Source: Deltaproteobacteria bacterium
GTDB taxonomy: Bacteria; Desulfobacterota; Syntrophia; Syntrophales; UBA2210
Assembly (NCBI GenBank): GCA_019313385.1
Contig: JAFDBG010000011.1
Span: 1 to 51,072, forward strand
Direction of reading: 5' to 3'
DNA: 51,072 nt
Shown here: positions 20,456 to 41,460 of the stretch, one piece after another
Numbering within the stretch: the first letter of the stretch is position 1
Layout of the letters: each line of letters starts with the position of its first letter
Position numbers and translations under genes: made by a program
Notes under the pieces: model-generated
What the model was told of the DNA's origin: nothing
Databases searched by the model: none
Seen by the model: only the letters and a program-made list of their open reading frames with translations

Positions 20456-20465
20456 GGTAATCATT

Positions 20466-21363: not shown

Positions 21364-21369
21364 CATATT

Positions 21370-21400: not shown

Positions 21401-21403
21401 AGT

Positions 21404-21472
21404 AAGCTCGCGGTGAAGATGGTGGATATCTTCGGCAACAACACGATGACCATTGTTGAGGTGATGGTATGA
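21404..21472 (+). repeat. Diverged copy of the last 69 bp of the mod gene
   Basis: 61/69 identical to 19546-19614; KLAVKMVDIFGNNTMTIVEVMV* versus [22 protein letters not shown]. Confidence 0.9.
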
Positions 21473-24807: not shown

Positions 24808-25827
24808 TCAGGAAGTAAGGCGCTCCGCACTGTGCAACAATTCGGCGAAGCCCTGTTCTGAAGGAATCCGGGCATAGAGAAAATCGGCGCATCTTCTTTT
24901 ATTTTCAATGCGCTGTTGCAAGGGAAGAACAAGCTCTAGGTACCTCTGGAAAGACTGACCGCAATGGGCCTCGAGAACAGCCTGGGCCGCATACTGCCCT
25001 GAGATTAAGGCTTCATGAATGCCACCTCCCGTCAATGGATCGGTAAAGCCTGCTGCATCTCCTGCCAAAAGAACGCCGTCAGCAGCCGGGGATGTCGCAT
25101 TGTTTCCAATATTTATGGGGGCACCCGAAATTTCAGGCGGTTCTTCCAGATCATATTTCCGAATAAAACAAATCAGGTCCGCCTTTTTGATGTATCGATG
25201 ATCACGACAATAGATCCCGACGTTGATATGGTCCTTTTTGGAACATATCCAGCCGTAGCCGTTTTTTATTGCCGTAAAATCAAAACAGATCTCTTCTTGC
25301 GGAATATGCGGACAATGGGGCACGTCGGCTTCCAGGGCAAAGGCATAGGCAGGTTGTACTTCAGGCCAGAAAATTTTCCTGACGGTACTTATGGCGCCAT
25401 CGCATCCAATAACCACATCTGCCCGTAGTTCTTCGCCCTCTTCTGTGCGTATCAGGACGCCACCGGAAAGGTCAATTCTCGCAATCCCTCCGATTCGCTT
25501 GAAGAGAACACCCTGTTGCAACGTTTGCATTAAGCAGTAGTGGTCAAATTCCTCCCGTGATGCCAGGGAAATATTCTCTGAAATATACTCGCTTCTCTCA
25601 TCATTTAGAATTATACGGCTTCGGCTCACTTTTCGCTGAAGAACCGGTGCGACGGAGTAGCGAAGATTTTTGACAACCGAGGCCGGAATCATTCCCGCAC
25701 AGGACTTTTTCCGCGGGAAGTCTTTCTTGTCGAGCAGAAGGACCTTTTTCCCGGCTGCACCCAGGTCGTAAGCGGCGGCACATCCCGCAGGTCCTGCGCC
25801 GACTATAATTACATCAAAGGCTGCCAT
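24808..25827 (-). CDS. Geranylgeranyl reductase-family FAD-dependent oxidoreductase
   Basis: DVIIVGAGPAG, FPRKKSCAG, GCDGA.S.VR, GYGWI and GDAAGFTDPLTGGGI motifs. Confidence 0.85.
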   Translation of the reverse strand: MAAFDVIIVGAGPAGCAAAYDLGAAGKKVLLLDKKDFPRKKSCAGMIPASVVKNLRYSVAPVLQRKVSRSRIILNDERSEYISENISLASREEFDHYCLMQTLQQGVLFKRIGGIARIDLSGGVLIRTEEGEELRADVVIGCDGAISTVRKIFWPEVQPAYAFALEADVPHCPHIPQEEICFDFTAIKNGYGWICSKKDHINVGIYCRDHRYIKKADLICFIRKYDLEEPPEISGAPINIGNNATSPAADGVLLAGDAAGFTDPLTGGGIHEALISGQYAAQAVLEAHCGQSFQRYLELVLPLQQRIENKRRCADFLYARIPSEQGFAELLHSAERLTS

Positions 25828-26905
25828 TTATATTCTTCCAGTGATGGGTGATTTTCAGATAGGCCTTTGCAGACATTCCTTCGGCGGGATCGAAACTTAT
25901 CTTAAGGTGATTTACGGACCGGATCAAAAAGCTACAGCACTGTTTCCTGTTTTCTTCCCAATAAACCGCAAGGGACCGGGGCCAGCGTTCCTGATTTTCG
26001 ATAATGGAATCGTAGCCGTAAAAATTAAGCAGTTCATCCATCTTGCCATGAGAGCAGAGCCCTTCCATCTCTAATTCTTTAAGAACGTGATGCCAGGCTT
26101 TTTCCCGCCGTGGATTTCTCTGCCTGATCAACAATTCCAGCCCGATCCTCGGCTCGATGCGCTCTGTTACGTCAAGAGAGAGATCGCAAATATCGACAAA
26201 AGGTTCCAATCTCTTGTAAAGGCTGAAGAAATTCTTACAAGATGGGTTGTATCCGATATGACCAAGAAAGCTTCCCATCTTTTGCCAGCCCAAATTATCC
26301 AGACCGGCCAGGCACAATCTCAGGGGTGCCAGGCCTCGCGAGGCCATGATCCCTATCTGTCGCACCGAAGACTTGTCCGGCAATCTCCGGATAATATCGC
26401 CGGCCTTTTTACTATATCGCGCATCTATATATCGTTCCCCCAGATCTCTCTGAATCTGTGTCAAAATCCGAGTAGACTGCGCGGGGGTGCCGGTTTCCGG
26501 TGTGAGAAAGAGGCTGGGAATGGAGGCGGGCTTCTCACCGACATCGTATTCCAGCCATATCATGGCAAGCTGGCTTTTGAGCCGGTTATCACTGCGTCCT
26601 GTCAGTGAAGATATCGATTTCAGGAGCGCACTATGCTCTTCTTCGAAACCTGAGAACTGAAAATCGGAATAATCACGATCGGCTAACAGGCCGAATGAAA
26701 GATCCGCCATTCTTGAGGAATCATCGAGAGAGCACTCGAGTAGAAAGGGAGATAAGGCGATGTTGAACGGAACAGATGAAGCCGTTTTTATGAGGTTGTC
26801 ATAGGATTTATCGTCAACTAATACCTGAGGAATACGATTTTGTACCGCGATCAAAAACTCCGATGCCCTGTCGCTTGATTTTTCGTGGATAACCGACCGA
26901 TACAT
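25814..26905 (-). CDS. Hypothetical protein, putative RiPP tailoring enzyme (possibly aromatic-prenyltransferase-like barrel)
   Basis: Intact 363-aa ORF overlapping the GGR start; WLEYD, QIGIMASR, RIGLE and HLK..AKAYL patterns; fold assignment is inference. Confidence 0.45.
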   Translation of the reverse strand: MYRSVIHEKSSDRASEFLIAVQNRIPQVLVDDKSYDNLIKTASSVPFNIALSPFLLECSLDDSSRMADLSFGLLADRDYSDFQFSGFEEEHSALLKSISSLTGRSDNRLKSQLAMIWLEYDVGEKPASIPSLFLTPETGTPAQSTRILTQIQRDLGERYIDARYSKKAGDIIRRLPDKSSVRQIGIMASRGLAPLRLCLAGLDNLGWQKMGSFLGHIGYNPSCKNFFSLYKRLEPFVDICDLSLDVTERIEPRIGLELLIRQRNPRREKAWHHVLKELEMEGLCSHGKMDELLNFYGYDSIIENQERWPRSLAVYWEENRKQCCSFLIRSVNHLKISFDPAEGMSAKAYLKITHHWKNINGSL

Positions 26906-26962: not shown

Positions 26963-28291
26963 TTATCGGAATTGAACCGGTCCTTCACTGTCCTCGAACA
27001 GTCCCTTGTCCCACCAGAGGTTCAAGAGTCCGTAAATTTTTGTCGCTGAATATTCGCCGGACAGGCTGCTGACAATCCCTTCCGGTGACTGTGAGCCATC
27101 GATCAATCGGAGCAGGGCGATGCCCATCTCCGATTCAATTGTCATTTGTCGATAACGGGTTTTCAATATTGCCCTGTTGTCGAGTTGAAGCTGAATATCC
27201 AAATCTCTCCTGAACTTTAACGCCCGGTCACTCGCAAGGACACTGTTCATGATGGTGTTTTGACAGAATGTCAAAAATGCTTTGAAATCAGGAACGTCTG
27301 CAAAGGTCGATTCGGCCAGTATGCGATATCCCTTTGTCCAGACATCCGGTTCAATGCAGGGTGATACCAGCTTGACGGTACGTGTTGCCAGATTAACCAG
27401 AAAACCGCATACGCAGGCCGTTGTTCCGTCGATGGCATCGTGGAGCGACAGTGCCCTGCCGCTTTTATAGAGATGGCTGAAGGCCTCCGGGTAGTTCAGT
27501 ACCAGATGGACTTTTTTCAGGTCATCCGCGGTAAAGGTTTTCATGCAGAATCTGAAATGTTTGAGCGAATTGATTGAAAACCGTTCGACACCGCCTTCAA
27601 GTGACTCCGATTGCACAAGCAGACGGCGGGTTCTGGGGATATCCCGAAACCAGGCCGCTGTTGTCGTTTGTGGAATTCCCCCCACTTCATCATAATATGC
27701 CTGAAGATATTTTGCATAATCAGGGTTATCCAGGGGTTCGGTAAAGAAATACAGCAGGCCGTAGATAGAGTCTACACCTGAAAATTCAGTCAGCGCACCA
27801 AGGATTCCGCGAAACAGCATTTCGTTCTCTTGCGTGAAAAGGGCAACGCTTCGCAGTTTTTCCGCGGCACCGGCGCAATAGCTGCACCCGACGGAACAGC
27901 CTTCAGACAGTTCGATGGAAAAAGCAAGAAAGGGATTCTTTTCACTCCAGTCCGAAGGCGCCTGTGTTGAAAACCGGGCTTTTTGGCGAGCGCTCCACGT
28001 CTCAAAGATGGGGTTCGATATTTCTATTTGTTTTTGCAGGATCTCAAGTGAAAATTTATTTATGGCTTCGACATATTTGCCATAGGCTTTCAAGGCGGGG
28101 TGCCCTTTTACTAGATCGGCAATCTTGATGCGGTCGTTTTTATCGCGTCGGCAGAGCGCCGCCACTTCTTTCGGGTCCACCTTAAGGGCATAGTTTCTTA
28201 AAGCTTTAGCGGGATTGTCGGCGAAGACTTTGCGAAACGCGTTGTCTCCGTCCCAGCATTCGATGAATCGTTTAACCTGAGCATAGTGCAT
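26963..28291 (-). CDS. Radical SAM RiPP amino-acid epimerase (PoyD/OspD-like)
   Basis: N-terminal VKRFIECW.GD..FR, ELSEGCSVGCSYC, TEPLDNPDY, PQTTTA, GTTACVCGFLVN..VKLVSPC; C-terminal RRE-like winged helix. Confidence 0.82.
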   Translation of the reverse strand: MHYAQVKRFIECWDGDNAFRKVFADNPAKALRNYALKVDPKEVAALCRRDKNDRIKIADLVKGHPALKAYGKYVEAINKFSLEILQKQIEISNPIFETWSARQKARFSTQAPSDWSEKNPFLAFSIELSEGCSVGCSYCAGAAEKLRSVALFTQENEMLFRGILGALTEFSGVDSIYGLLYFFTEPLDNPDYAKYLQAYYDEVGGIPQTTTAAWFRDIPRTRRLLVQSESLEGGVERFSINSLKHFRFCMKTFTADDLKKVHLVLNYPEAFSHLYKSGRALSLHDAIDGTTACVCGFLVNLATRTVKLVSPCIEPDVWTKGYRILAESTFADVPDFKAFLTFCQNTIMNSVLASDRALKFRRDLDIQLQLDNRAILKTRYRQMTIESEMGIALLRLIDGSQSPEGIVSSLSGEYSATKIYGLLNLWWDKGLFEDSEGPVQFR

Positions 28292-28329: not shown

Positions 28330-29823
28330 TTAATCTCCAGCGAAGGAAAAATTCAATCGTTCTTCCGTGAAAAGGCCCCTGTCGTCGTTCTCAAAAAGCC
28401 AGGCAATCACCTTTTTATTAACCCATCGCTTTTGGCTGCACCACTCCTGGTTTGCGTCAAACATGCTCCCGTACTCGACATAGGAAGATAGGGGACAATC
28501 TCCGGCACAGTTATAGCGTATAAAGCAGTCGTCGCAGGCCCGCATGTTTTCTACCGATCTTTGGGCGAGGAATTCGGTTTTATCTTTGTCTATGTTCACT
28601 CGACCCGTCACAGGGTCCACTTTGCCGTAAAGAAACAGCTCTGATCCAGGTTCCGATTCATTCTGTATCTCGGTGCATGCGGTAATATTACCATCTGAGG
28701 TCAGTACAAAATTGATGCCGCAGGCGCCGCAATAAAATCGTTTTGCCGGTCCCAAGGCATACGCGCCTTTTCCCTTAATACGGACACCATGCATAGTTCC
28801 ATGTATGAACGCCTTATAAAACTGTTCACTGTATGCTGACGGATCGGGCGCCTTTGTGGATGAAGAAATCGCCCTTTCCGACATTTTAAGAGGTTCAAAA
28901 TGTATCGTTTGTATTCCTTCCCGTGCTGCCAGCTCAACCGTTTGCAACATTTTCGGCAATGAATAGGCTGTGACGGTCGAACGAATCTCGACTCTTCTCC
29001 CCCCTTTTGCAAGGGCGCGGATATTCTCAATGACGGTTTTGTAGCTTTCGCGGTTGCCGCGAAAGGGCCGCTGCAGGTTTTGCACTTCTTCTGACCCATC
29101 GAGACTGAATCTGCACTCAATGTCATGATCACAGATGAAACGCCTCACCGAATGGTGAAACGTGCCGTTTGTGGTGACTTTAACAAGCGGTTTTATCCAG
29201 TTGAGACGACACTTTTCTTCGAAAATTTCCACGATTTCACAAAACAGATTCTTGTCAAGGGTGGGTTCGCCGCCTCCGTGAAGAAAGAGACAGGCCGTAG
29301 CGCTGGTCGCAAAGATGTCGCTGAAAAATTTTTCAAGTGTCTTCTCGTAGATCGAAAGGTCTAAAGCCTTTTCCTTCAGATGCGCGGGTGCGTTTGAGTG
29401 GCAGTATTGACATTGAAGGTTGCAGGCGCTTTGAGGATAAACGGTAAGTACAGGAATCACAGGGGACTTCATGGCCGTCTCAAAGGGATCTGCCGGCGTT
29501 TCCATATCGGAAATAATCCCCGCATCGCAGAGATGGTGGAGGGCGGGTAAGAATTCTTCCTCTTGAAGATTAAACTGTCTCATGATGTCATGGACAGTTG
29601 CACCGCCATCAAATTTTTCCAAGACCCTTTGCAAAAAAGGACTAATCCTGCAACAGGTTCGAGCAAAAGGAGCGTGAAGGTAATAATTCCCCTCCTCCTC
29701 AAAGAGGAAAACCTCTTTCCCTATTGTGGACGATAACACCGAATTCGAATCAAACCGTTCGGATTCTAGTCTTGTCGGGCGATTACCTTTTAGTTTAATG
29801 ATACTAAGATGCGCTTCTTTCAC
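28330..29823 (-). CDS. Radical SAM/SPASM peptide maturase with N-terminal RRE-like domain
   Basis: CNLQCQYC, HGGGEP, TTNG and FSLDG; SPASM YCGAC..AC..CDDCFIRYNCAGDC..C; directly downstream of the precursors. Confidence 0.88.
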   Translation of the reverse strand: MKEAHLSIIKLKGNRPTRLESERFDSNSVLSSTIGKEVFLFEEEGNYYLHAPFARTCCRISPFLQRVLEKFDGGATVHDIMRQFNLQEEEFLPALHHLCDAGIISDMETPADPFETAMKSPVIPVLTVYPQSACNLQCQYCHSNAPAHLKEKALDLSIYEKTLEKFFSDIFATSATACLFLHGGGEPTLDKNLFCEIVEIFEEKCRLNWIKPLVKVTTNGTFHHSVRRFICDHDIECRFSLDGSEEVQNLQRPFRGNRESYKTVIENIRALAKGGRRVEIRSTVTAYSLPKMLQTVELAAREGIQTIHFEPLKMSERAISSSTKAPDPSAYSEQFYKAFIHGTMHGVRIKGKGAYALGPAKRFYCGACGINFVLTSDGNITACTEIQNESEPGSELFLYGKVDPVTGRVNIDKDKTEFLAQRSVENMRACDDCFIRYNCAGDCPLSSYVEYGSMFDANQEWCSQKRWVNKKVIAWLFENDDRGLFTEERLNFSFAGD

Positions 29824-29937
29824 AGGATATCCTTTGTGGGAAAGCAGTGAGTGAAAAACCTCGTGAGGTAATTCTGAATGTGAATAAAATGATTGAAACG
29901 CAGAAAACCGTTTTTTTTCCTTTCAATGCACCCGAAA

Positions 29938-30027
29938 TAAAAAGAACCGCAACAGAGATCAGCGGTCAAAAAATCCTTAATATTACTGCACCCCGACAAT
30001 CCTTTATCTGAAAATTGCCGGGGTGCA
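29938..30027 (-). terminator. Tandem hairpins / probable terminator after the precursor genes
   Basis: tgcaccccg...cggggtgca (29987-30027), then accgc-11 nt-gcggt flanked by A runs (T-tract on the minus strand). Confidence 0.6.
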
Positions 30028-30066
30028 TGGAAATAGGAAAAAGCTACAAGAAAACGGCAGGTCTTC

Positions 30067-30309
30067 TTAATTTTTTCCGCAGGTGTCAGCGACACACATG
30101 TAGCTGCCGCCGCCGGCTACAGCATCCAGATCCGCGTCTGACAATTCGCCACCACGGCATTCGTTGAGCTCTGCCTGGGTAAAGTCAAATCCAGCTCCCA
30201 GAATAACTTTCTTCTTTTCTTCCACGGACTTTGCTTCATTGATCGATTTTGCAAACGCTTCATCCGCCTTATACTTGGCCAAAAACTTCTGTGCGCTTTC
30301 TACTGGCAT
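30067..30309 (-). CDS. Nif11-like leader RiPP precursor 1 (core GSYMCVADTCGKN)
   Basis: GFDFT..EL and ELSDADLDAVAGG double-glycine leader; AGGAGGAG RBS. Confidence 0.92.
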   Translation of the reverse strand: MPVESAQKFLAKYKADEAFAKSINEAKSVEEKKKVILGAGFDFTQAELNECRGGELSDADLDAVAGGGSYMCVADTCGKN

Positions 30310-30379: not shown

Positions 30380-30619
30380 TTAATCCATCGCACATGTATC
30401 CGCTACGCACATGTAACTGCCGCCGGCTACAGCATCCAGATCCGCGTCCGACAATTCGCCGCCACGGCATTTGTTGAGCTCTGCCTGGGTAAAGTCAAAT
30501 CCCGCTCCCAGAATAACTTTCTTCTTTTCTTCCACGGATTTTGCTTCATTGATCGATTTTGCAAACGCTTCATCCGCCTTATACTTGGCCAAAAACTCTT
30601 TTGCGCTTTCAACTGACAT
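30380..30619 (-). CDS. Nif11-like leader RiPP precursor 2 (core SYMCVADTCAMD)
   Basis: Near-identical leader to precursor 1; ELSDADLDAVAGG; AGGAGG RBS. Confidence 0.92.
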   Translation of the reverse strand: MSVESAKEFLAKYKADEAFAKSINEAKSVEEKKKVILGAGFDFTQAELNKCRGGELSDADLDAVAGGSYMCVADTCAMD

Positions 30620-30947: not shown

Positions 30948-32111
30948 TTAAACACATATCCTTTCAGCGTACCTCAACGCTTTTTGAAGGATCGAGAGGG
31001 CTTTCTCAGAGGACAATTCTTCGATGGTAAAACAGGTTAGGATCATGATCGCAATGGCCTTCCACCGTTCTGTTTCGAAATTGTCTCTATGCTGGCGGTC
31101 AAATTCCTCAAGATTTTCCGAAGCCTTCTTTGCCAGGGTCTGAAGAATTTTAAAGGAGCCGTCCGAAAGAGGAGGCTTCCCCCGATAGTTCTCGAGCCGC
31201 CCTCCTTCCCGGTATTCGGGAAAATGTTCCAGTCCCAGAAAGCGCAAAAACCAGTCCGCCCGGTAACGGCCTGTGGCCGCCACAATCCCTATGTAATCGG
31301 CTATAAGTTCATCAATAAGTCGATTTTGCATGGATGAAAAAAGCTGCAGTGTTGCATAGTGAGTGCATTCATGTTCTCGTCGAATGATAAGGGAAAGCCG
31401 CTGCCACTCATCTTCAGAAAGCCCCATTTCAGGAGCCGATACCGCACTATAAGGCCCGTCGCTCAAAATAATGAAGCGATCCTGGTAAAGGTTCTTTTGC
31501 GGGATAATTCGCCTGAACTCCTCCTTCCACTGGTCTTCAGAACAGTTACGGCGATTTTCTGTCTCCCACCGCGCGCGGTATCTGACGATCCTGTCCCAGT
31601 TGTTGTACCCTGTGACGATGGCTGACCCCATGGATTTTGGGATGGGAGCGGGCTCATTCCTTTTGGTGAGAGCCCTGACAAGGGCGACAAACTCTTCCCT
31701 CACCGGGGTGGAAATGATCGGTATGCGCCCGGCAAGGGTCGGATGAATGGTCAGATGGAGAAGGTCAGACCTCTTCAGTTCGAGACCGGTTGCCTGGGGA
31801 ATGTCTTGCGGCGGAACGCCTCTTAGCGTAACGGACCGGTAAAACGACTCTTCGCTGATACCCTTCCTGACCAGAAACCGGAGTTGTACCAGGTGACCCT
31901 TTAAGGAATCAAAGGCACCTTTAATGATGGCCTCCGATTCGTACTTCTCCCAGACGGAAATAAAGGGTTCGTCAGGCAGGGGCAAGGGAGTGATTCGGGA
32001 CAGGCCGGTGTGATCATATGTATTCTCATTATAACGTAAGAGCTCATCCGTTTCAGAATCTGATGCTCCCAGTGATGCGAGCACATGTGCCCTGTAATCC
32101 TGATCTTTCAA
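30948..32111 (-). CDS. Conserved hypothetical protein with HExxH motif
   Basis: Intact 387-aa ORF; REHECTHY followed by DELIAD; embedded in the RiPP operon. Confidence 0.7.
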   Translation of the reverse strand: MKDQDYRAHVLASLGASDSETDELLRYNENTYDHTGLSRITPLPLPDEPFISVWEKYESEAIIKGAFDSLKGHLVQLRFLVRKGISEESFYRSVTLRGVPPQDIPQATGLELKRSDLLHLTIHPTLAGRIPIISTPVREEFVALVRALTKRNEPAPIPKSMGSAIVTGYNNWDRIVRYRARWETENRRNCSEDQWKEEFRRIIPQKNLYQDRFIILSDGPYSAVSAPEMGLSEDEWQRLSLIIRREHECTHYATLQLFSSMQNRLIDELIADYIGIVAATGRYRADWFLRFLGLEHFPEYREGGRLENYRGKPPLSDGSFKILQTLAKKASENLEEFDRQHRDNFETERWKAIAIMILTCFTIEELSSEKALSILQKALRYAERICV

Positions 32112-32128: not shown

Positions 32129-33286
32129 TTACTGACTTTTGTAATATTCAAAGCGGCCATTTCTGGCCTCTTTGATAAAGATCTCATCCTCTACAATATC
32201 ACCGTTTTCGGCATACGTATGAAAACCCGTAGCCCCTTCCCAACCCTTCGTGGCGCGCAAGGCATCTGCAATGCGTGAGGGCACAGTGGATTGGGCCTTT
32301 TCCATAGCCCAGGCAAGGAGCTTCATTGCGTCGTAACCTTGGGCGGCCTTGGAATCAGGGATGGTATTGTATTTATCTGAAAAGGCCTTTACAAAATGCT
32401 GGACCTTTTTTTCTTTTCGTTCCGGATAAAACGGGGAACCTACAAATACATTGATGGCACTTTCGCCCGCACTCTTAAACAGTTCAGGCGAATCCAGTCC
32501 TTCCCCTCCTATGATGGGGACCTTGATTCCCAGACTCCTGGCTTCTTTAATAATATAACCCGCCTGAGGAGTAATACCGCCAAGGAAAACGGCATCGAAG
32601 GAAAAGTTATCGCTCCAGTAGGCAAAATCCTTTTGGAAATTTTTTATGTCACTCAAGGAGGTATAGTCGATCCGATCGACTATGGCGATTCCTTTTTTTT
32701 CAGCCTCCATCTCAAAGGCATCGGCCAATCTCTGTCCATACTCATCACTGGAATGGTATATTACCATGTTTTGATACCCTTGCCCGTCACAAAAATCGGC
32801 CAGTTCCCGGCCGAAGACGGAATCGCTTGGGATATTACGGAACACACATTTAAAACCCCGTTCGGTCAATCTGGGGGTTGTCGATGTTGGGGAAAGCATG
32901 AGCAGATCATAGTATTCGTAAATAATGGATGTGGCGTAGGATATATATGAATTATAATGTCCTATCATCGCGACCATATCTATATTTTCCGCGAATTGCT
33001 GCGCTACAATCTGTCCCTTGGTTACCGAAGCCTCGTCATCCCTCTTCACCACATGAATCCTTCGGCCAAGAACCCCTCCTTCATTATTGATCTCTGACAG
33101 GGCAAGCTCTATCCCCTGCCACAAGCCATTTTTTATCTCCGACCATGGCGCGGCAGCGCCTATGACAATCGGGCCAGTCGATTTCTCCGCCCGTAGGGCC
33201 CTTTTTTCACCGGGGTTGTCCCCACCCGTACAGGCCATTATGCCTAAAAGGAACACTGCAAGCCCTATTAAATATCTTTTTACCAT
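32129..33286 (-). CDS. LivJ/K-like periplasmic binding lipoprotein
   Basis: Lipobox IMAC; EINNEGGVLGR, GHYNS, DEYGQ and QGYDA motifs. Confidence 0.85.
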   Translation of the reverse strand: MVKRYLIGLAVFLLGIMACTGGDNPGEKRALRAEKSTGPIVIGAAAPWSEIKNGLWQGIELALSEINNEGGVLGRRIHVVKRDDEASVTKGQIVAQQFAENIDMVAMIGHYNSYISYATSIIYEYYDLLMLSPTSTTPRLTERGFKCVFRNIPSDSVFGRELADFCDGQGYQNMVIYHSSDEYGQRLADAFEMEAEKKGIAIVDRIDYTSLSDIKNFQKDFAYWSDNFSFDAVFLGGITPQAGYIIKEARSLGIKVPIIGGEGLDSPELFKSAGESAINVFVGSPFYPERKEKKVQHFVKAFSDKYNTIPDSKAAQGYDAMKLLAWAMEKAQSTVPSRIADALRATKGWEGATGFHTYAENGDIVEDEIFIKEARNGRFEYYKSQ

Positions 33287-33393: not shown

Positions 33394-36303
33394 CTACGCC
33401 AGTTGTCGTGCTGCCAGTTCGGCAAAAAAGCCCTTCTGCCTCATAAGTTCATGGTATGCACCTGATTCGATGATTTTTCCATCTTGAAGCACATAAATAA
33501 GATCTGCGTTCATTATTGTACTCAGTCTGTGAGCAATTACTACACGAGTCACCTCAAGCTTTTCCAGGCTGTGGCTCACAATTGCCTGAGTATGATTATC
33601 CAGAGCGCTGGTTGCCTCATCAAAGAAAAGGATTCGGGGTTTTTTAACGATAGCTCGGGCAATGATCAACCGCTGTCTTTGCCCCCCTGACAGGGTTCCT
33701 CCCCCGGCGCTTACCACCGTATGCATACCCATGGGCATTTCCTCAATATCCTTGTCGATACCCACCATGCGTGCCGCTTCCCAGGCATCATCAATGGTCA
33801 GATTGGAGGCCCCAATAATATTTCTAAAGATATCTCCCTGCATTAACTGAGCATTTTGCAATACGACACCGACTTGCTGTCGCACCTCACGAAAATCGAG
33901 GGATGCTAAATCGTGTCCGTCATAGTAAATGGCACCCGATTCCTGTTTCTCAAATCCGAGTAAAAGTCTCAAAAGTGTTGACTTCCCTGATCCAGATCCG
34001 CCAACCAGGGCGATGAACTGTCCTGGCGCAACCTGCAAAGAGACATCTTTTAATATGATCGGTCCATCGTGGCTGTAATGGAAATTGATATGGCTGACCT
34101 CAATCGCCCCGCTCAATGCTCCCGGGTGAGTCTCCCCCTGGTTCGTTTCGGGGGTCGCCTCGATAATTGGTTTGAGCCTCTCATAGAGTGGAATAATGCT
34201 CAGGGAGGTCGCCAAAGCCGCAGCCATTTGGAGCATGGCCATCTGAAAATTACAATAGGCGGCATTAAAGGCCAGAAAGTTGCCAGTGCTCAATCTTCCT
34301 CCGGTAGTTTTCCAGATTAACCAGGCAAATATCGACATAGAAGCGATAACGGGGAAGGCGGAATTGAATGAGGTTAGCATATTTTGAATAGTACCCGCTT
34401 TAAAGGCGAGTTCTTTCTTCTCGGCGAAGTTTCCTGCCCATGCCGCGAATGCACGGTCCTCAGTGCCGGAGACACGGAGCTTTGTAATGCCTGAAATAAA
34501 CTGTAGAACCATGCCTGAAATCTTACCTTCGATTTCGTTTATTTTCCTCTGATAGCGGACAACCAGATAACTGGCAATGCCGGTGATAAGGATGCCTATC
34601 ATGGATAATCCCACTCCGACGAGGGCGAGTCTCACATCGTAGTAAAAAAGCAGGGCCAGACTAAATATGGAAAACAGGCAGGCCAGTATTGCGTTTACGG
34701 TAACACCGGAAAGAAGATCTCTGATCTCGTTGACCCCCATAGCTCTTTTTGCCAGATCTCCGGCCGAATAGTCGCGAAAGAAAGGAACGGGAAGAGAGAG
34801 AAGCCGATCCCATATTGCCGCCTGAATGGATGAATCCGTCTTACCAACAATACGCAGCAGCGCAATGCTCTTGGTTACATCGAACATGAGCATTGCGACG
34901 GCGGCTGTAGCCAGAACCAGGGAAATCTGCATGAGCTGGCCCCGAGAGGCCTCGGGAATAACTCTATCGAAAATGATTCCCGTCATAATAGGTATAAGAA
35001 GGCCCAGAAGGGCTCCGAGGACCCCCATAAGAATAACAGACGTAAGAGCGCCACCGCACCCACGAAAGCCAAACTTTATCAGATCGAGCCCGGTCAGCGC
35101 CCGGTTCGGGAAGGGCCGATAAAAAGAATATGCCTCCGGTGCCAGAGATTCGACGGTGCGGGATGTCGCCATTTGTCGTGTCCCCATTGCCGGATCATAG
35201 ATCGCGTACTTTCTCGGCGAAACTGAAATCAGGGCCACAGGTCTTTTTTCTTTATCGGCAAAGGCCAGAAGCGGGCCCTGGTCACGCCGCCACCAGGTTT
35301 CCTTGAGGATAACTTGTCGACTCCGAAAACCGGAACTTCGTGCGATATCTTCCAAAGAAAACCCATTGCCGCTGTCTTTCTCGGCTATGGCAGGCGAGCG
35401 GACTGCCATGCCGAGCGAATCTCCAATCATTCGACACGCCGCAAAAAGGGGATCTTCTTTGTCCTTTTGGGGGGCAACTACTTTCTTTTCTTCTTCCAGT
35501 ATAGAACCCAGACGATAGAAGGCCTGGGCCAGTTGTGAACGTCTGGCTTCGTCTTTTGTATGGATACGCTCGCGCTCGTCCCTTTCGGTCAATTTTTGAT
35601 TCAGGGCAAGGCACCTCAGGGCATATCGATGGAAATTACATAGCGCTTTCCACTCCCGATGTTTGCCAAAGAGCGTCTCTCCATCGATAACGGAAAAGGT
35701 TGTTTTTCCTTCTGTAACGATCCATGCGTTTGTGGAAAGGGGAAAGTATTCACCCTTGAGGATCTCGGGCCATTCACCTTTGCCCATCCACTGTAACGTT
35801 CCCTCGCTGGGCTTGATCCAGAGAGTCTTTTCAGGCGTTCGGAAATAGGTTTCCTCTTGGGTGAAAATATCGGAAGCGACATTAAGGTCGCTGAAGTCTC
35901 TGGGAAAGCGTATTTCTTTTCGAATTCCCGCGGATAACCTGCCGACCCACCGGTCGATCATGTCTCCCATCTTTTTTCGATAGGTTGATCCTTCCACGTC
36001 CTCAATAAGAGCGGACCTGGCATATTCCATGAGGGATGTATCGGGACCCCCCACGGCCAACAGGACTGCATCGTACTCTTTTCGGTCAGCTCTCATGCCG
36101 AAAAGTGCCTCTCCTTCATGGGCACGAAAGACATGGACGCGAGGCCCCTTCAGTTCTCCCTTATCCATCTGAACCGAGAAAACATCGACATTCCCGGAAT
36201 GGACCACAAAGATCCGTTCTTCGTCATCAAGGAGAAGTGGTTTGTTTCCGCTCACCTTCCGGATTGAGCCTTCTGTCTCAAATATGTCGCTCATTGTCTC
36301 CAT
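33394..36303 (-). CDS. NHLP bacteriocin-system ABC transporter permease/ATPase (peptidase-less partner)
   Basis: Long N-terminal extension, WWRRDQGPLL, GGSGSGKST, LSGGQRQR and DEATSALD motifs. Confidence 0.88.
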   Translation of the reverse strand: METMSDIFETEGSIRKVSGNKPLLLDDEERIFVVHSGNVDVFSVQMDKGELKGPRVHVFRAHEGEALFGMRADRKEYDAVLLAVGGPDTSLMEYARSALIEDVEGSTYRKKMGDMIDRWVGRLSAGIRKEIRFPRDFSDLNVASDIFTQEETYFRTPEKTLWIKPSEGTLQWMGKGEWPEILKGEYFPLSTNAWIVTEGKTTFSVIDGETLFGKHREWKALCNFHRYALRCLALNQKLTERDERERIHTKDEARRSQLAQAFYRLGSILEEEKKVVAPQKDKEDPLFAACRMIGDSLGMAVRSPAIAEKDSGNGFSLEDIARSSGFRSRQVILKETWWRRDQGPLLAFADKEKRPVALISVSPRKYAIYDPAMGTRQMATSRTVESLAPEAYSFYRPFPNRALTGLDLIKFGFRGCGGALTSVILMGVLGALLGLLIPIMTGIIFDRVIPEASRGQLMQISLVLATAAVAMLMFDVTKSIALLRIVGKTDSSIQAAIWDRLLSLPVPFFRDYSAGDLAKRAMGVNEIRDLLSGVTVNAILACLFSIFSLALLFYYDVRLALVGVGLSMIGILITGIASYLVVRYQRKINEIEGKISGMVLQFISGITKLRVSGTEDRAFAAWAGNFAEKKELAFKAGTIQNMLTSFNSAFPVIASMSIFAWLIWKTTGGRLSTGNFLAFNAAYCNFQMAMLQMAAALATSLSIIPLYERLKPIIEATPETNQGETHPGALSGAIEVSHINFHYSHDGPIILKDVSLQVAPGQFIALVGGSGSGKSTLLRLLLGFEKQESGAIYYDGHDLASLDFREVRQQVGVVLQNAQLMQGDIFRNIIGASNLTIDDAWEAARMVGIDKDIEEMPMGMHTVVSAGGGTLSGGQRQRLIIARAIVKKPRILFFDEATSALDNHTQAIVSHSLEKLEVTRVVIAHRLSTIMNADLIYVLQDGKIIESGAYHELMRQKGFFAELAARQLA

Positions 36304-36390: not shown

Positions 36391-38562
36391 TCACTGTTCA
36401 TTTATCAGATCGGCGTAGAGCCCTGCCGCATCAAGCAGTTCTTCATGGGTTCCCCGTTGTACAACCTTTCCACGGTCAAGAACGATGATCTCATCACAAT
36501 CCCGAATCGTGCTCAAGCGATGGGCAATAATGACGCAGGTGCATCCCCTTCGTCTGAGGTTATCATCGACAATTTTCTCCGTATACGGGTCCAGGGAACT
36601 GGTAGCTTCATCGAGGATAAGAATAGTCGGATTGTTCACCAGGGCTCGGGCTATTTCAAGGCGTTGCCGCTGGCCGCCGCTGAAATTTTTTCCCCCTTCC
36701 GCTACTATGCTTGAATATCCCCCCCGCACCGCGATATCGGAATGGATGGAGGCATCCTGTGCGGCCCTCGTGATCGTGGATTCACGAACGGTATCATCCC
36801 ACATGGTGAGATTTGACTTGATTGTTCCACCGAACATAAAAATGTCCTGATCCACCATAGCCAGGGAGTTATATAATACATCGCGTGGAATCTCGGGTAT
36901 GGTCATGCCGTCAAGGGTGATGCGGCCATCCCAGGGATCGTAAAAACCCGCAATAAGTTTCGCGATCGTCGATTTTCCCGATCCGGACCCTCCTACCAGC
37001 GCCACACGCATACCCGGATTCAAGGCCAGACTGAAATCTTCTATAAGGGGGGGGGCAAGACGACTGTACCCAAAGGTTAGTTTGTGGAGTTCCAGCTTCC
37101 CCGATAGTTTTGCGGGCATGGATTCAGCCGGCTCAGTTTCCTTGACTGCAAAACGCTTATCGACGGGATTTCGCTCTACGTCATCCAGCCGATCCATGTC
37201 TGCATGGGTTTCCTGCAGGAGGCTTCCCAGATTGACCATCTGGTTGACCGGCTGCATAAAACTCATCATGAGGCTTTGAAAAGCCACCAGCATTCCCATG
37301 CTCAAGTGGCCTTCCATGACACGAAGTCCACCAACCCCCAGTATGGCCACGATATTCAGACTCGTTAGAAAGGGTGGTATGAGAGTAAGTGTCTGGGTGA
37401 AAAGGGCGAGCTGTTGCTGCGCATTCAGGACCTTTGCCTGATAGCCTGACCATTGTGAGAAAAAATCAGATTCCGATCCGGTGGCTTTTAGCGTCTCAAT
37501 CATTTGCAGGCCCATCATGGCCGTTCCCATCATCTTGCCTGCATCCTGCTGCAGGCGCATATTAAGATTCTTTCGCTTACGCGACACGTATTTTAAAACG
37601 GCAAGATTCAGAAGGGCGATAACAATGCCCAGCAGGGTGAGGACCACGTCGTACTGAATCATAAGAGCCGCATAAAACAAAACCAGCACCAGATTAATGA
37701 CATTGGTAGTCAGTTCCCCTGAAAGTATATGGGCAACCTTGTCATTAAGTAATACGCGATTGCCCACTTCTCCCCCGAATCGCTGGGCAAAGAATTCAAT
37801 AGGCAGCCGGAAGACATGCTGGAAAAACTTACTTGAAGATGACAGGGCAAGCTTGGTTTCAAACCGCAGGAGATAGTGTCCCTGCAGCCAGGTGAGGGCT
37901 GCGCGCAGAAGGGCCGCGAGTCCCATCGCCAGGAGAAGAGGTTGCAACCATCCCTCCATCCTTTCAACCAGAATATAATCCACAAAGATCTTGGTAAAAA
38001 TCGGGATTACAAGTCCCGGAATAACCAGAAAAAGACCGGCCAGGACCACGTAGATGAGGGCCATCTTGCCCCCCACAAAGCGTTTTCGAAGGGAACGGAC
38101 AAGGCTCTTTTTCTCTCCGCCTTTTCGAAAGTCGTCAGTAGGTTTGAAAACCATAATGACGCCGGTAAAAGATTCATCAAATTCCTCTTTAGAAACCACT
38201 CTGGGGCCCGTGGCGGGATCATTCAGGTAAGCGCGCCCTTTTTTAATCCCTTCGAGAACAACGAAATGATTGAAATTCCAGAATACAATCATTGGAAAAG
38301 GGAATTCACTCAATTCTCCCAGCTCTTTGCTGTACCCCTTAGCCTCCAGTCCGTACCTGCGCGCGGCTTTCAGAATATTACTTGCCTTACTGCCATCCCT
38401 CGAAACCCCGCATTCAACTCTAAGCTCTTCCAGAGAAACAAACCGCCCGTAATAGCCGAGAATCATCGCCAGAGCCGCCGCGCCACACTCCACCGCTTCC
38501 ATCTGGATAACCGTCGGTGTCTTCACACGTCTGTTACGCCATGCTTTTTTCGGTGTGTTCAT
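36391..38562 (-). CDS. NHLP bacteriocin export ABC transporter with C39 peptidase
   Basis: TPTVIQMEAVECGAA, FWNFNHFVV and NDPA catalytic elements; ABC motifs. Confidence 0.92.
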   Translation of the reverse strand: MNTPKKAWRNRRVKTPTVIQMEAVECGAAALAMILGYYGRFVSLEELRVECGVSRDGSKASNILKAARRYGLEAKGYSKELGELSEFPFPMIVFWNFNHFVVLEGIKKGRAYLNDPATGPRVVSKEEFDESFTGVIMVFKPTDDFRKGGEKKSLVRSLRKRFVGGKMALIYVVLAGLFLVIPGLVIPIFTKIFVDYILVERMEGWLQPLLLAMGLAALLRAALTWLQGHYLLRFETKLALSSSSKFFQHVFRLPIEFFAQRFGGEVGNRVLLNDKVAHILSGELTTNVINLVLVLFYAALMIQYDVVLTLLGIVIALLNLAVLKYVSRKRKNLNMRLQQDAGKMMGTAMMGLQMIETLKATGSESDFFSQWSGYQAKVLNAQQQLALFTQTLTLIPPFLTSLNIVAILGVGGLRVMEGHLSMGMLVAFQSLMMSFMQPVNQMVNLGSLLQETHADMDRLDDVERNPVDKRFAVKETEPAESMPAKLSGKLELHKLTFGYSRLAPPLIEDFSLALNPGMRVALVGGSGSGKSTIAKLIAGFYDPWDGRITLDGMTIPEIPRDVLYNSLAMVDQDIFMFGGTIKSNLTMWDDTVRESTITRAAQDASIHSDIAVRGGYSSIVAEGGKNFSGGQRQRLEIARALVNNPTILILDEATSSLDPYTEKIVDDNLRRRGCTCVIIAHRLSTIRDCDEIIVLDRGKVVQRGTHEELLDAAGLYADLINEQ

Positions 38563-38564
38563 CT

Positions 38565-39851
38565 TTAAGATCCTTCAGTTGTATCGTCACCGACCCCAAG
38601 GACGTGTTTTTTGAAAAAGGGAATGACGAGATCTATGGGACGCTGTTCGGAAACCGTTACTGTTGCGTTGCAGAGCGTTCCCCCATTGACCTTTATCGGA
38701 GGGCCTTTTGAAGAAGACCACTTAAACCCGCTGGCCGTTCGGGGATCTGGAATCAGTTCGGCCCGCACTTCGACGGGCACCATACCTAAAGAAAATTTGT
38801 CCACCAGCGCTTCGTTTTGAAGCTGATTCATCATTCCCCGGTGGGTGGAAGGGAACGCCGAAACGCTTGTGACCAAACCATGAATAAATCCATACTGTTC
38901 TTGTTTAACAGTGGAGGGAGAAATCTGGGCATTCATTCCAAGTCGAATTTTTTTACCGTCGCGGGGTGAAAAATAGAGCACGGCTTCGAGGTTCTTTATC
39001 TCCTTGCCCATAAGTTCGACAGTCATGATCTGCTGGCCTTCGGAAACAAGAGAACCTTCATCGACAGATACTTCCAGTATGCGTCCCGTGTAGGGACTGA
39101 TGACTTTCGATTCCTCATTAAAACTATACTGTAACCGTTCGAGGGTCCTTTTGGCCTCGTTTATTTTCTGATCTATTGCCGAAAGGTCGTTTCCCTGTTG
39201 ATTTTTGAGCTGTATCTCCTTGATGGAAAGAAGTTTCAACTGGTTAAACTGTTCTCTGATTTTTTGCTCCGTGTCGCTTAATTGCTCTTGCGTATCTATC
39301 AGTTGCTGTTTCGTTATCAAGCCCATGTTCATAATGGCCGTTTGGTCTTCTATCTTTTTGTTGAGCCAGCCGACCTGCTCTTTAAGGGCCTCGATTGCGC
39401 TATTGATATTTTCCTTCTGCTCCTTTCTGGACTCCTTGTCCAGTACCATTTCCCGGGTTCCGAATTGGGCGATACGGACACGTTCCTTCTCAAACTCTGC
39501 GAGAGCAGCCCTGGAGCCTCTTATCTGATCGAGGAGTTGAGGCTGTTCGAGCCGTGCGACTACCTGTCCACAGCGAACGGTATCGTGCACACTGAAGTAG
39601 CGGTATTGGACACGTCCCGAAGTATCAGGAACAATTGCGTAGACCCCCCCCGATTTCATCAGTATTCCTTGACCCGTGACCCTGTCGGGTATGATTCCCA
39701 AGAATCCCCAGAAGACGGCACATATTAAGAGACCTATAAGCGCAATCAGGGCAACCCAGCCTTTCGGTGTGGTGATTTTCATGAGCTGATCCAGTTGCTC
39801 TGGAGACGACAGCCGCTCTAAGGCTACCTTTCTAAAGATCTGTCCACTCAT
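38565..39851 (-). CDS. NHLP bacteriocin-system secretion protein (HlyD family)
   Basis: IFRKVALERLSSPEQLDQLM N-terminus, coiled coil, and SGFKWSSSKGPP. Confidence 0.9.
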   Translation of the reverse strand: MSGQIFRKVALERLSSPEQLDQLMKITTPKGWVALIALIGLLICAVFWGFLGIIPDRVTGQGILMKSGGVYAIVPDTSGRVQYRYFSVHDTVRCGQVVARLEQPQLLDQIRGSRAALAEFEKERVRIAQFGTREMVLDKESRKEQKENINSAIEALKEQVGWLNKKIEDQTAIMNMGLITKQQLIDTQEQLSDTEQKIREQFNQLKLLSIKEIQLKNQQGNDLSAIDQKINEAKRTLERLQYSFNEESKVISPYTGRILEVSVDEGSLVSEGQQIMTVELMGKEIKNLEAVLYFSPRDGKKIRLGMNAQISPSTVKQEQYGFIHGLVTSVSAFPSTHRGMMNQLQNEALVDKFSLGMVPVEVRAELIPDPRTASGFKWSSSKGPPIKVNGGTLCNATVTVSEQRPIDLVIPFFKKHVLGVGDDTTEGS

Positions 39852-39888: not shown

Positions 39889-41460
39889 CTATGGAATGGG
39901 GATCGTTGTCAGTTGTTCCGTGGTGACGGTATAGCACCCCTTGTTCTCTCCTAGCAGGGTGCCTGTTGCGAAACGAAGTTGAAGCACGGCAAGGGCATAT
40001 TCTGTTTGTGCGGAGACCTCTCCCTGCAGGGCAGTTCTGAACCGATCTTTAATATCCAGGACATCAATCACGGTGGACATTCCCATATGAAGCTTCATAT
40101 TTTCATTATCCAGTGCCTTACGAGAATATAACACTGCCTTTTGCGCTTCTCCAAGTTCCGCCGTCTTTTGTATGAGCGCGTGCATGGCGACGACGACACA
40201 AGAATGGATATTTCTCTCCAAATCAGCCGTCTGAATGCGCGTTTTTAGGTGGGAAGATTTTCTCTGATGTAAAAGGCCACTCGACGTGTTGTTGCCGAAG
40301 GGATATTGCAAACTGAGGGTTGCACCGCCGTTTAAGCCCTCTACATTTTCGCGAAAGGCATTATAATAGCCGGATTTTCTGTCTGTTTCATCGAGGCTTT
40401 GATATCCCATGCTTAACGAAAGATCCAGTTGAGGTTTCATATTGATCCGGGCGGCGGTCAGGAGAATCATAGCCTCTTTTTCAAGCTTTTCCAGTGCCAG
40501 GAGGTCAGTCCGGTTTTTATTAGACAGTTGAATGAATTTCATTTTATTGTTTTCGATGGAAAGACTTTTACCTGAAAGCGACCCTGGGAATGTATCGGAG
40601 GGGAGCGGAAGCTTAGTGACATCATGAAACTGTAGCCCCATCGCGATACCCAAATGCTGGCGGGCCTCGTAAAGGGTCTGCTCACCCATGATGCGAGCCA
40701 TTGTTTTTGATGCCAGATCAGCCCGAAGCTGGTCAAGATCGGACCGTGGTCGCTCATCCGCATTTACCAGCTTCTCAACATCTTGCAGTAGTTTGATCGA
40801 TCTGGATTCGGCTTCTTCCAGGATTTCAAGATTTTCTTTGGCCGCCGCTACCTCCCAGTAGGCATTGGCTGTTTCCAGGACGGCGGTCGAATAGGTATGG
40901 CGAAGGCTCAATTCGGAGGCCTCAACCTGGCTTTTTGCGGCTGCTTCACCAGCGGCTGCCGATTCCCTCCCTCTTCCGCTCAGGAGGGGCAAGGTTATGA
41001 CAAAATTAACGCTTCCTTCATTGATCGTGGGGGCCCCTGAGCTTTGATCGTCGGTACGCGTCATCTGAGCGTTGGGACCCACTGTGATGCCGTTGCGAAG
41101 CTTTTTATTCAGACTGACGGTATAGGTAGTCACATCCGAAGCATCTTTTGAAGTGCCGTAGGTTAATTGATCGGCTGCGGTAAACGGCTTATTTTCATGT
41201 GTGCGGCTGATATTCGTGGTAAGGGTAGGGTCGAAGGCGCCGCGGGCTTGTTGTAGCGCCCCCTTGCTTATCTCTACAACCTCTTCCTGTATCTTGATGG
41301 ATGGCTGGTTCGAAAGAGTTGTTCCTATTGCTTCGATAAGTTTCAGTCCTTGCTCAGATTGCTCTGAGAGACTCGGCGAAACGAATATGAGCAAAGAGAA
41401 TATACCGTAACAGACCGCAATCAGCAAAATAACCCTGTTTTTTAGCATAAGATTCCCCAA
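39889..41460 (-). CDS. TolC family outer-membrane efflux protein
   Basis: Signal peptide, AYWE.., PQLDL and GMSTVIDVL patterns; alternative ATG start at 41448. Confidence 0.85.
   Translation of the reverse strand: MGNLMLKNRVILLIAVCYGIFSLLIFVSPSLSEQSEQGLKLIEAIGTTLSNQPSIKIQEEVVEISKGALQQARGAFDPTLTTNISRTHENKPFTAADQLTYGTSKDASDVTTYTVSLNKKLRNGITVGPNAQMTRTDDQSSGAPTINEGSVNFVITLPLLSGRGRESAAAGEAAAKSQVEASELSLRHTYSTAVLETANAYWEVAAAKENLEILEEAESRSIKLLQDVEKLVNADERPRSDLDQLRADLASKTMARIMGEQTLYEARQHLGIAMGLQFHDVTKLPLPSDTFPGSLSGKSLSIENNKMKFIQLSNKNRTDLLALEKLEKEAMILLTAARINMKPQLDLSLSMGYQSLDETDRKSGYYNAFRENVEGLNGGATLSLQYPFGNNTSSGLLHQRKSSHLKTRIQTADLERNIHSCVVVAMHALIQKTAELGEAQKAVLYSRKALDNENMKLHMGMSTVIDVLDIKDRFRTALQGEVSAQTEYALAVLQLRFATGTLLGENKGCYTVTTEQLTTIPIP

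Follow-up and report, generated by a model that had tools for sequence, protein, structure and literature searches.

The window described here, a 51,072-nucleotide stretch of contig JAFDBG010000011.1 from a Deltaproteobacteria bacterium of the Syntrophales, carries on its minus strand a long operon for a peptide that is made on ribosomes and modified after translation (a RiPP), with a Nif11-type leader. Its last two genes are the subject of this report. One is a 363-residue open reading frame (ORF; 25814..26905, −) that encodes a putative leader-dependent peptide prenyltransferase (PT) of the ABBA, or PT-barrel, fold, assigned from an AlphaFold2 (AF2) model, Foldseek, VIA and residue conservation. 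The other is a 339-residue ORF (24808..25827, −) that encodes a flavin adenine dinucleotide (FAD) protein of the geranylgeranyl reductase (GGR) family, a putative prenyl-chain reductase recognized by TIGR02032, by its fold and by its motifs. By analogy with characterized enzymes, we lean somewhat towards a reading in which the two proteins would act on one product: leader-guided prenylation of the core of a Nif11 precursor by the PT, with the GGR homolog saturating the isoprenoid chain.

An earlier reading of the letters of this DNA (the original prediction) had placed a 14-bp overlap between the two genes at the end of a maturase operon. Both ORFs are present at the positions given above, and their coordinates and the DNA string bear the overlap out: it spans 25814..25827 (−; ATGGCAGCCTTTGA), with the PT stop codon TGA (25816-25814) lying 3′ of the GGR ATG (25827), an arrangement that is consistent with translational coupling. 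The identical 14-nt overlap recurs in two of the metagenome loci described below, L006 and L007 (tblastn coordinates); in L008 and L010 there are short gaps instead. Upstream, 57 nt separate the epimerase gene from the PT gene, in one transcriptional direction. Read 5′ to 3′, the operon encodes a TolC-like protein, an HlyD protein, an ATP-binding cassette (ABC) transporter with a C39 domain, a second ABC protein, a binding protein, a DUF7005 protein, two precursors, a radical S-adenosylmethionine (SAM)/SPASM maturase, an epimerase, the PT and the GGR homolog; the next gene downstream of the pair is a convergent, plus-strand ResIII helicase gene that ends at 24446.

A predicted ABBA prenyltransferase fold

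Scans of the 363-residue protein against Pfam and NCBIfam returned no family at E ≤ 0.01, and none of the curated PT families PF11468 PTase_Orf2, PF11991 Trp_DMAT, PF19156 and TIGR04445 was matched; two of its relatives likewise had no match to a curated PT family. The AF2 model, built on a 13-row alignment, has a predicted local distance difference test (pLDDT) score of 84.1 and a predicted TM-score (pTM) of 0.87, and DSSP delineates in it five alpha-beta-beta-alpha repeats, as in the ten-stranded antiparallel ABBA barrel. All matches listed by Foldseek in a search of the PDB are ABBA aromatic PTs (EpzP, DMATS1, CloQ, NphB, AmbP1, PriB, IptA, AtaPT and AnaPT among them), with a best E of 1.2e-6 at probability 1.00 and 103 matches at E ≤ 0.001. 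When Foldseek’s best 1000 chains were re-aligned with VIA, 133 had Z ≥ 8, and the best 50 PDB entries were PTs without exception (50/50; Z 14.5-16.7; 260-306 residues aligned, within model residues 5-357), headed by CymD (Z 16.7, 302 residues aligned) and MpnD (Z 16.5). Because all of the top matches from both methods are aromatic PTs, we regard the ABBA fold predicted by this model as solid. The original prediction had proposed such a barrel, rating its own call as weak, from an alternating strand/helix pattern, the string WLEYD and a terminal AKAYL. The call is upheld by the Foldseek and VIA comparisons, which give only PTs at the top, and the alternating pattern is apparent in the DSSP assignment; both strings are real and hold the most conserved residues of the family (WLEYD being residues 117-121), the one correction being that AKAYL lies near the C-terminus (346-350 of 363) rather than at it.

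Across 71 aligned, diverse relatives, residues E57, D68, E119, D121, P130, H333, K335, K347 and Y349 are invariant, and W117, L118, R190, R196, D245, G255 and E257 are nearly so. DSSP places most of these residues, the nearly invariant R190 and R196 included, on predicted strands of the model, with acidic, basic and tyrosine residues in i/i+2 pairs: E119/D121, H333/K335 and K347/Y349. Such residues would be expected to line the lumen of the barrel, where they would serve Mg2+ and diphosphate, and fold and conservation jointly point to a putative enzyme of prenyl transfer.

The family to which this protein belongs is large. A word-indexed search with the 363-residue protein retrieved 13 proteins, query included, and an exhaustive search retrieved 1391 representatives at E ≤ 1e-3, with 487 at E ≤ 1e-10 and seven at E ≤ 1e-30. 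Twenty relatives were scanned against Pfam, and in none (0/20) does a model cover the barrel part; nine of the 20 exceed 600 residues, and seven of these nine have a second domain (three methyltransferase, two P450, one squalene-hopene-cyclase C-terminal domain and one 2-oxoglutarate oxygenase). The nearest clusters in the ESM Atlas are unnamed and stem from Myxococcota, Actinomycetota and Pseudomonadota; structural neighbors there include fusions to a squalene-cyclase domain, to radical SAM/SPASM and to a nitroreductase/ThcOx domain, and also DMATS clusters. In genome samples the family is rare: one of 400 other genomes from the window’s phylum has it (G143), as do two (G594 and G659) of 401 genomes sampled from the phylum around G401. 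In G594 and G659, a PT homolog directly follows the HlyD-ABC1-ABC2 genes of an NHLP/Nif11 export system, with DUF7005 nearby; one of the loci has a LanM fragment at its edge, and a different one encodes an NHLP precursor. A 38-residue match in an Actinomadura contig, the only return of a single-protein scan of genome contigs, was dismissed as chance, the family profile having failed to confirm it in that genome.

One further PT copy deserves separate mention. At about 9069-10185 of L018, in G594, a second copy is broken by a TAG stop and lies beside an NHLP precursor gene (TIGR03793, 92 bits), DUF7005, a P450 gene and an IS110 transposase gene; this locus looks like a decaying duplicate cluster.

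The geranylgeranyl-reductase-family partner

The 339-residue protein scores 188.8 bits against TIGR02032, over the cut-off of 158.8 (189.1 bits in the genome search), which bears out the earlier view of the downstream gene product as a GGR homolog; all other models fall far under their own cut-offs, QhpG for example at 60.2 bits vs 240. Among the 12 TIGR02032 matches in the genome, it is the only one over the cut-off. Among solved structures, those closest to it by sequence (phmmer) belong to GGRs from Thermoplasma (3oz2, E 3.4e-13) and Sulfolobus (3atq and its variants). The archaeal GGR motifs given in a review (PMC10821996) are GxGxxG, PxxYxWxFP, LxGD and RxxFD, to which is added Cys47, essential in the Sulfolobus enzyme (SaGGR). 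The 339-residue protein has G10AGPAG15, C43, R91EEFD95 and L254AGD257, which are invariant in 6/6 aligned PT-linked homologs; C43 aligns with the catalytic-region Cys of both SaGGR and the Thermoplasma enzyme (TaGGR), and GYGWICSK aligns with GYxWxFPK. Within the PxxYxWxFP cavity motif, Y191 and W193 are invariant among the PT-linked homologs, and the F-P pair is kept in the homologs of L010 (GYGWTFP) and G143 (YAWDFP). The five best Foldseek matches to the AF2 model are all GGRs (E 1.8e-23 to 5e-21, TMq 0.74-0.82). By analogy with these relatives, the 339-residue protein is a putative reductase of isoprenoid C=C bonds.

We also considered a flavin halogenase, whose motif is WxWxIP. This assignment was rejected: the phmmer matches to halogenases are local ones to the FAD motif, and the protein has no WxWxIP string.

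Co-occurrence of the two genes at other loci

A pattern scan of metagenome contigs yielded six loci, L005 to L010, onto which the window proteins were mapped by tblastn. L005 (PT 93% identical) has a precursor, the radical SAM enzyme, the epimerase, the PT and, cut short by the contig end, a GGR homolog of which the first 45 residues are present (100% identical). L006 (PT 80%, GGR 84%) has precursors, radical SAM enzyme, epimerase, PT and GGR, and both L007 (PT 70%, GGR 77%) and L008 (PT 66%, GGR 77%) have epimerase, PT and GGR. L009 (PT 79%) has the exporter, the binding protein, DUF7005, precursors, the radical SAM enzyme, the epimerase and a PT gene that is cut by the contig end; it therefore says nothing about GGR, and its DNA nearly duplicates that of L006. 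In L010, a locus of high G+C content (PT 30%, GGR 38%), the genes for a radical SAM enzyme and a Nif11 precursor lie on one strand, and PT then GGR lie on the other, with no epimerase between precursor and PT. The GGR gene thus stands directly 3′ of the PT gene in 5/5 informative loci (L005, L006, L007, L008 and L010), and the two proteins diverge in parallel across L005-L008 and L010; the radical SAM/SPASM enzyme is kept in L005, L006, L009 and L010, and the epimerase in L005-L009. Of the co-occurrence with GGR and Nif11 precursors that the original prediction had proposed to look for, the pairing of PT and GGR is therefore found at all informative loci, and L010 combines a PT of 30% identity with a Nif11 precursor and a radical SAM enzyme. 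Neither the fold comparison nor this survey thus gave the outcome that the original prediction had named as refuting it.

A more distant arrangement was found in G143 (L011 10478-13237, −; PT 23% identical): here three ORFs stand one after another, flanked by genes for a Ser/Thr kinase and a sulfatase: one of the GGR family (148.5 bits against TIGR02032, slightly short of the cut-off), one of 171 residues, and the PT. No recognizable precursor, radical SAM enzyme or exporter is encoded at this locus; the 171-residue ORF, considered as a precursor, matches no family at E ≤ 1 save two noise-level NCBIfam rows. G143 gives a second, divergent link between PT and GGR, possibly with a protein or a compound other than a peptide as its substrate.

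In 3/3 loci of G594 and G659 (two from the former, one from the latter), a GGR homolog is absent within about 10 kb of the PT gene. A quick maximum-likelihood tree of the PT family unites the window clade and the L010 clade in one 13-row subclade (SH-aLRT 99) that also holds six representatives whose genomic context was not read; the G143 protein falls outside it on a long branch, and LanM-type proteins lie in the main clade. From these placements and the GGR-less loci of G594 and G659, it follows that pairing with GGR is a trait of a subclade and not of the whole PT family; it possibly arose more than once. Counting changes of the label ‘GGR-adjacent’ on this tree (4 changes; 33 of 500 shuffles were as low) was discarded as not meaningful, given that unlabelled rows stand for unread context rather than for absence.

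Precursors, maturases and a candidate acceptor

Both precursors of the window have a Nif11 leader. Precursor A (30380..30619, −; TIGR03798 59.9 bits) has the core SYMCVADTCAMD and, in the leader before the GG site, L56-x4-L61; precursor B (30067..30309, −; TIGR03798 56.2 bits) reads (G)SYMCVADTCGKN after its GG site. We aligned seven full-length precursors, these two and five from the metagenome loci, leaving out a contig-edge copy in L006, a 44-residue truncated copy in L009 and short remnant matches in L006 and L009. Common to all seven are the leader and, preceding the GG site, the L-x4-L motif; their cores span 10-13 residues and invariably contain Y-x-C-x-x-D, joined in most of them by a second C-x-x-[D/N]. 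In precursor A numbering, the residues invariant in 7/7 sequences are Y69, C71 and D74. The Tyr that the original prediction had noticed in both intact cores is thus a constant feature, at core position 2.

The radical SAM/SPASM peptide maturase (28330..29823, −) misses every equivalog cut-off: its nearest models are PapB (115.6 vs 340 bits) and QhpD-type ones, with TIGR03906 at 93.1 vs 453 and rSAM_nif11 at 88 vs 518.7, and models of cyclophane formers match at 42-50 bits. Since its nearest models form thioethers from Cys to Asp or Glu, the C-x-x-D motif is likely to be its cross-linking site, as judged from the sequences. The second maturase is a PoyD-like radical SAM peptide epimerase (26963..28291, −; TIGR04517 330.7 bits vs a cut-off of 325, residues 3-432 covered). 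If C-x-x-D is indeed taken by the cross-link, Tyr becomes the obvious nucleophile for the PT, and we consider it the leading candidate acceptor; S-prenylation of Cys and O-prenylation of Ser or Thr are possible alternatives. A weak control comes from a single genome that has no PT homolog, G124 (L031 9015-10651), in which a 32%-identical radical SAM/SPASM gene is followed by a putative 72-residue, Lys-rich ORF with a Cys/Asp-rich center and repeated C-x-C-D, no Nif11 leader and no Tyr; this one case (n=1) hints that the radical SAM family targets Cys and Asp.

We also predicted the complex of the PT with precursor A. The score of 0.35 (runs 0.41, 0.22 and 0.35), set against 0.01 for the best control, offers weak support: the mark applied lets through 116 of 157 solved complexes and two of 215 mismatched pairs, yet the band of scores up to 0.60, in which 0.35 falls, holds only 18 of the 157 solved complexes and both of the passing mismatches. 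Contacts agreed by at least 68% between the runs, and the partner pLDDT was at least 70.

Comparison with known systems

ABBA-type prenylation of peptides on Nif11/NHLP precursors is already known, since 2024-2025, from MppC and NctPC; what is unusual at the window is the reductase partner, the radical SAM scaffold and the Trp-free core. NctPC was reportedly described by Hubrich et al. (Chem, 2024). A review (PMC13290415) presents it as an ABBA PT domain that is fused to an MstE-like cyclase and has low similarity to cyanobactin PTs: a geranylgeranyl (C20) group is placed onto Trp and then cyclized. The window system resembles NctPC in that a second activity would remodel the chain, and relatives of the window PT are fused to a domain of the squalene-hopene-cyclase type; it differs in that NctPC has a fused cyclase and a Trp acceptor, whereas the window has a separate GGR-family flavoenzyme, which predicts saturation and not cyclization. 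MppC, from the mpp cluster of Moorena producens (Wakeel, McShan & Agarwal, JACS 2025; PMC12715784), is a soluble ABBA PT that geranylates C5 of Trp in a Nif11-led LanM lanthipeptide; it requires the leader, with its L(X)4L motif, and acts after macrocyclization (PMC12715784). Like MppC, the window PT is predicted to be a soluble ABBA barrel and is encoded with Nif11-leader precursors that carry L56-x4-L61; unlike MppC, it is accompanied by radical SAM scaffold enzymes (one of thioether type, plus the epimerase), by Trp-free cores and by a coupled GGR-family gene. A Nif11/NHLP precursor or export system is the setting of the PT family in the window operon, in metagenome loci of L005-L010, in G594 and in G659, and since this setting matches those of MppC and NctPC, the 363-residue protein is probably of their kind, a likeness of context and description.

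Cyanobactin PTs (PagF and the LynF/TruF/PatF family) are ABBA barrels that modify peptide side chains, including the Tyr oxygen in the case of PagF, and they are leader-independent and use short donors. The model of the window PT shares their barrel; unlike them, the protein has no match to TIGR04445 or to Pfam at E ≤ 0.01, and leader dependence is predicted for it from context. The flavoprotein, for its part, resembles archaeal GGRs (3oz2, 3atq), ChlP/BchP and MenJ in exceeding the TIGR02032 cut-off and in having GxGxxG, the Cys, RxxFD and LxGD. It differs from the archaeal enzymes (397-453 residues) in its length of 339 residues and its altered cavity motif (GYGWICS), and from known GGRs in that its genomic partner is a putative peptide PT rather than a lipid or pigment pathway. 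With PapB/QhpD-type maturases and PoyD epimerases the window shares its best radical SAM models, its C-x-x-D cores and an epimerase over the PoyD cut-off; unlike the PapB/QhpD-type enzymes, the radical SAM/SPASM protein lies under every equivalog cut-off, and C-x-x-D is only suggestive of similar chemistry. In the literature searched, to which the JACS supplement and the Hubrich papers, lying outside the search, may add, we found no description of a conserved coupling of a PT to a GGR-family enzyme, of a radical SAM enzyme and an epimerase combined with PT and GGR, or of a Trp-free Tyr core. Nor does the same literature report a GGR that acts on a peptide-bound prenyl group or a peptide with a saturated isoprenoid lipid.

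Proposed pathway and alternative explanations

From the fold, the family context, the gene pairing, the GGR membership with its motifs, and the core motif, we infer prenyl transfer to the peptide and reductase chemistry, which might proceed as follows. The PT would recognize the Nif11 leader of both precursors and attach to the short core a polyprenyl group drawn from an allylic diphosphate of housekeeping metabolism, most plausibly farnesyl diphosphate (FPP), Tyr 2 being the most likely acceptor. The radical SAM/SPASM enzyme would cross-link C-x-x-D as a thioether, and the PoyD-like enzyme would add D-residues. The coupled GGR-family flavoenzyme would saturate at least one C=C bond of the peptide-bound isoprenoid chain; equally, it could work on the diphosphate donor ahead of transfer and reduce its distal double bonds, sparing the allylic bond that the PT needs. 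Finally, the C39 ABC exporter would cut the leader at the GG site and secrete the lipidated, cross-linked peptide. Known relatives of the reductase act on geranylgeranyl diphosphate, geranylgeranyl-chlorophyll, archaeal lipids and menaquinone.

In the genome (assembly of 2.15 Mb, 93.6% complete), the gene next to dxs encodes an IspA-like synthase (FPPsyn 375 bits), and a long-chain polyprenyl synthase is encoded as well. As the operon has no synthase of its own, the prenyl donor is probably a housekeeping diphosphate, and FPP is the likeliest one because the genome has an IspA-type synthase. No heme-copper oxidase (COX1) was found in this 93.6%-complete genome; that result and the two radical SAM enzymes of the operon lead us to favor an O2-independent reductase over an oxygenase. 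Only tentatively, and with rather less assurance than attaches to the pathway itself, do we suggest that these loci encode, by an O2-free route, the first peptides with a wholly or partly saturated isoprenoid lipid: D-residue-containing thioether mini-peptides with a polyprenylated Tyr, matured by the first known peptide-prenyl reductase.

Several observations weigh against prenylation of the peptide followed or preceded by chain reduction. On the side of the PT, profile searches of the PDB with 13 or 71 relatives found no PT, the best match being an unrelated N-acetyltransferase at chance level (E 0.27 and 1.5, respectively); the Foldseek TM-scores of the model are moderate (TMq 0.39-0.54); and because the protein has no sequence match to a solved PT or to a curated PT family, its active-site assignment draws on fold and conservation only. 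On the side of the flavoprotein, the best AF2 model has a pLDDT of 82.8 and the other four lie at 50-65; the window clade retains just part of the cavity motif, its GYGWICS having C-S in place of F-P; and monooxygenases and halogenases come close behind the GGRs in Foldseek (Tet(51) at 2e-20, QhpG at 1.3e-19), so that fold alone does not settle the chemistry. Characterized relatives prenylate Trp, which occurs in none of the aligned cores (0/7); Tyr, the sole aromatic residue there, could instead be a cross-linking partner of the radical SAM enzyme. In Pfam and NCBIfam scans, the operon has neither a dedicated polyprenyl synthase nor an electron donor gene. Lastly, the metagenome relatives are few, near-duplicates (L006/L009) being among them, and there are the GGR-less loci of G594 and G659.

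The closeness of the flavoprotein to monooxygenases gives rise to one alternative, in which the PT does prenylate the peptide and its partner is either an oxygenase or epoxidase (a QhpG-like hydroxylase, or an epoxidase that primes cyclization) or a peptide dehydrogenase. Its fold is common to group A flavin monooxygenases and halogenases; QhpG (7ctq) takes Foldseek rank 15 and is also matched among NCBIfam models; the near-models of the radical SAM enzyme include QhpD, from the same quinohemoprotein system; and the loss of F-P from the GGR cavity of the window clade fits as well. We nevertheless judge this alternative unlikely: the QhpG score is far under its cut-off where TIGR02032 is over its own, the GGR-essential Cys, RxxFD and LxGD are invariant in all six PT-linked homologs, W-x-F-P is kept in the L010 and G143 homologs, the halogenase motif WxWxIP is missing, and a genome in which no heme-copper oxidase was found, with O2-sensitive radical SAM enzymes in the operon itself, would suit an O2-dependent enzyme poorly. 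A different account detaches the pair from the peptide altogether: PT and GGR homolog would make or tailor an isoprenoid unconnected with peptides, for instance a prenylated aromatic compound or a quinone-like lipid, and would merely be carried at the end of a RiPP operon. Here the close packing of the genes is telling, with a 14-nt overlap between the two and a 57-nt gap after the epimerase gene, all in one transcriptional direction; the linkage to a Nif11 precursor and a radical SAM enzyme persists at 30% identity and in a rearranged gene order (L010), NHLP/Nif11 exporters and LanM accompany the wider PT family, and the score of the PT-precursor complex (0.35 vs 0.01 for the best control) adds a little, weak as it is in a band that holds both passing mismatches. 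These points make the account improbable in our view, in spite of the G143 pair, with its 171-residue ORF and no recognizable precursor, radical SAM enzyme or exporter, and of the facts that small aromatics are the substrates of most solved ABBA PTs and that GGRs are known only on lipids and cofactors.

It could further be asked whether the barrel protein is a prenyl-donor enzyme here at all, or instead serves the NHLP/Nif11 system as a scaffold or chaperone that binds the leader, or transfers another group. The position of the gene in G594 and G659, where it is the last of the exporter block and not beside a maturase gene, would suit such a role; there is also no sequence link to characterized PTs, and sharing a fold does not show function. 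On the other hand, the constellation of charged and Tyr residues on the barrel strands, invariant in 71 diverse members, argues for catalysis; the fusions to terpene-cyclase and tailoring domains parallel the PT-cyclase fusion of NctPC (PMC13290415); and a GGR partner would make no sense unless there were an isoprenoid. We therefore give a non-prenylating barrel very little credence, and return to prenylation of the Nif11 precursor core with saturation of its chain as the reading that we favor.

Lipidation strongly shapes the activity of peptides and their behavior at membranes. To our knowledge, the chain in known RiPP prenylations is left unsaturated or, since 2024, cyclized. If the proposed pathway is correct, a peptide-prenyl reductase would provide a third outcome, a saturated, chemically stable tail resembling those of archaeal lipids, and it would widen the substrate range of GGRs beyond lipids, pigments and quinones. 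The cluster would then couple lipidation to radical SAM cross-linking and epimerization in an anaerobe, a compact, gene-encoded route to stable lipopeptides. The result also helps to annotate a family of more than 1000 representative proteins for which databases have no model.

Other genes of the operon and its surroundings

The export machinery is encoded at the 5′ end of the gene row. It begins with a TolC-like outer-membrane efflux protein (39889..41460, −; PF02321 119 bits; TIGR01844 87 bits, under the cut-off) and an HlyD-type secretion adaptor of the NHLM system (38565..39851, −; TIGR03794 381.2 bits vs a cut-off of 156.2). These are followed by the NHLP/Nif11 export ABC transporter with its C39 peptidase domain (36391..38562, −; TIGR03796 1124.6 bits, Peptidase_C39 136 bits) and by permease/ATPase subunit 2 of the NHLP/Nif11 bacteriocin export ABC transporter (33394..36303, −; TIGR03797 976.6 bits).

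Between exporter and precursors lie two further genes. The first encodes a periplasmic binding protein (32129..33286, −; Pfam match to Peripla_BP_6) of the branched-chain-amino-acid type, situated between the exporter and DUF7005; it occupies the same place in L009 (87% identity), and a weaker homolog is found near a PT gene in L016. The second encodes a DUF7005 protein (30948..32111, −; PF22541 504 bits) with the HExxH-like string HECTH, from which it may be a metalloprotease. Homologs of the latter (L009 4414-5565, L017 1729-2841 and L018 10405-11541) occur in distant genomes at 52-82% identity, beside NHLP/Nif11 exporters and the PT family, and DUF7005 may be an unrecognized standard part of these RiPP systems.

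Two ORFs of the region match no Pfam or NCBIfam family: one of 358 residues (41941-43017, −), upstream of the TolC gene, and one of 91 residues (29820-30095, −), between precursor B and the radical SAM/SPASM gene, which may not be a gene. At its 3′ end, the operon abuts a defense island on the plus strand of the window (14006-24446), which comprises an AbiEi/AbiEii pair, an N6/N4 DNA methylase, a PIN-domain protein and the ResIII helicase/restriction subunit.

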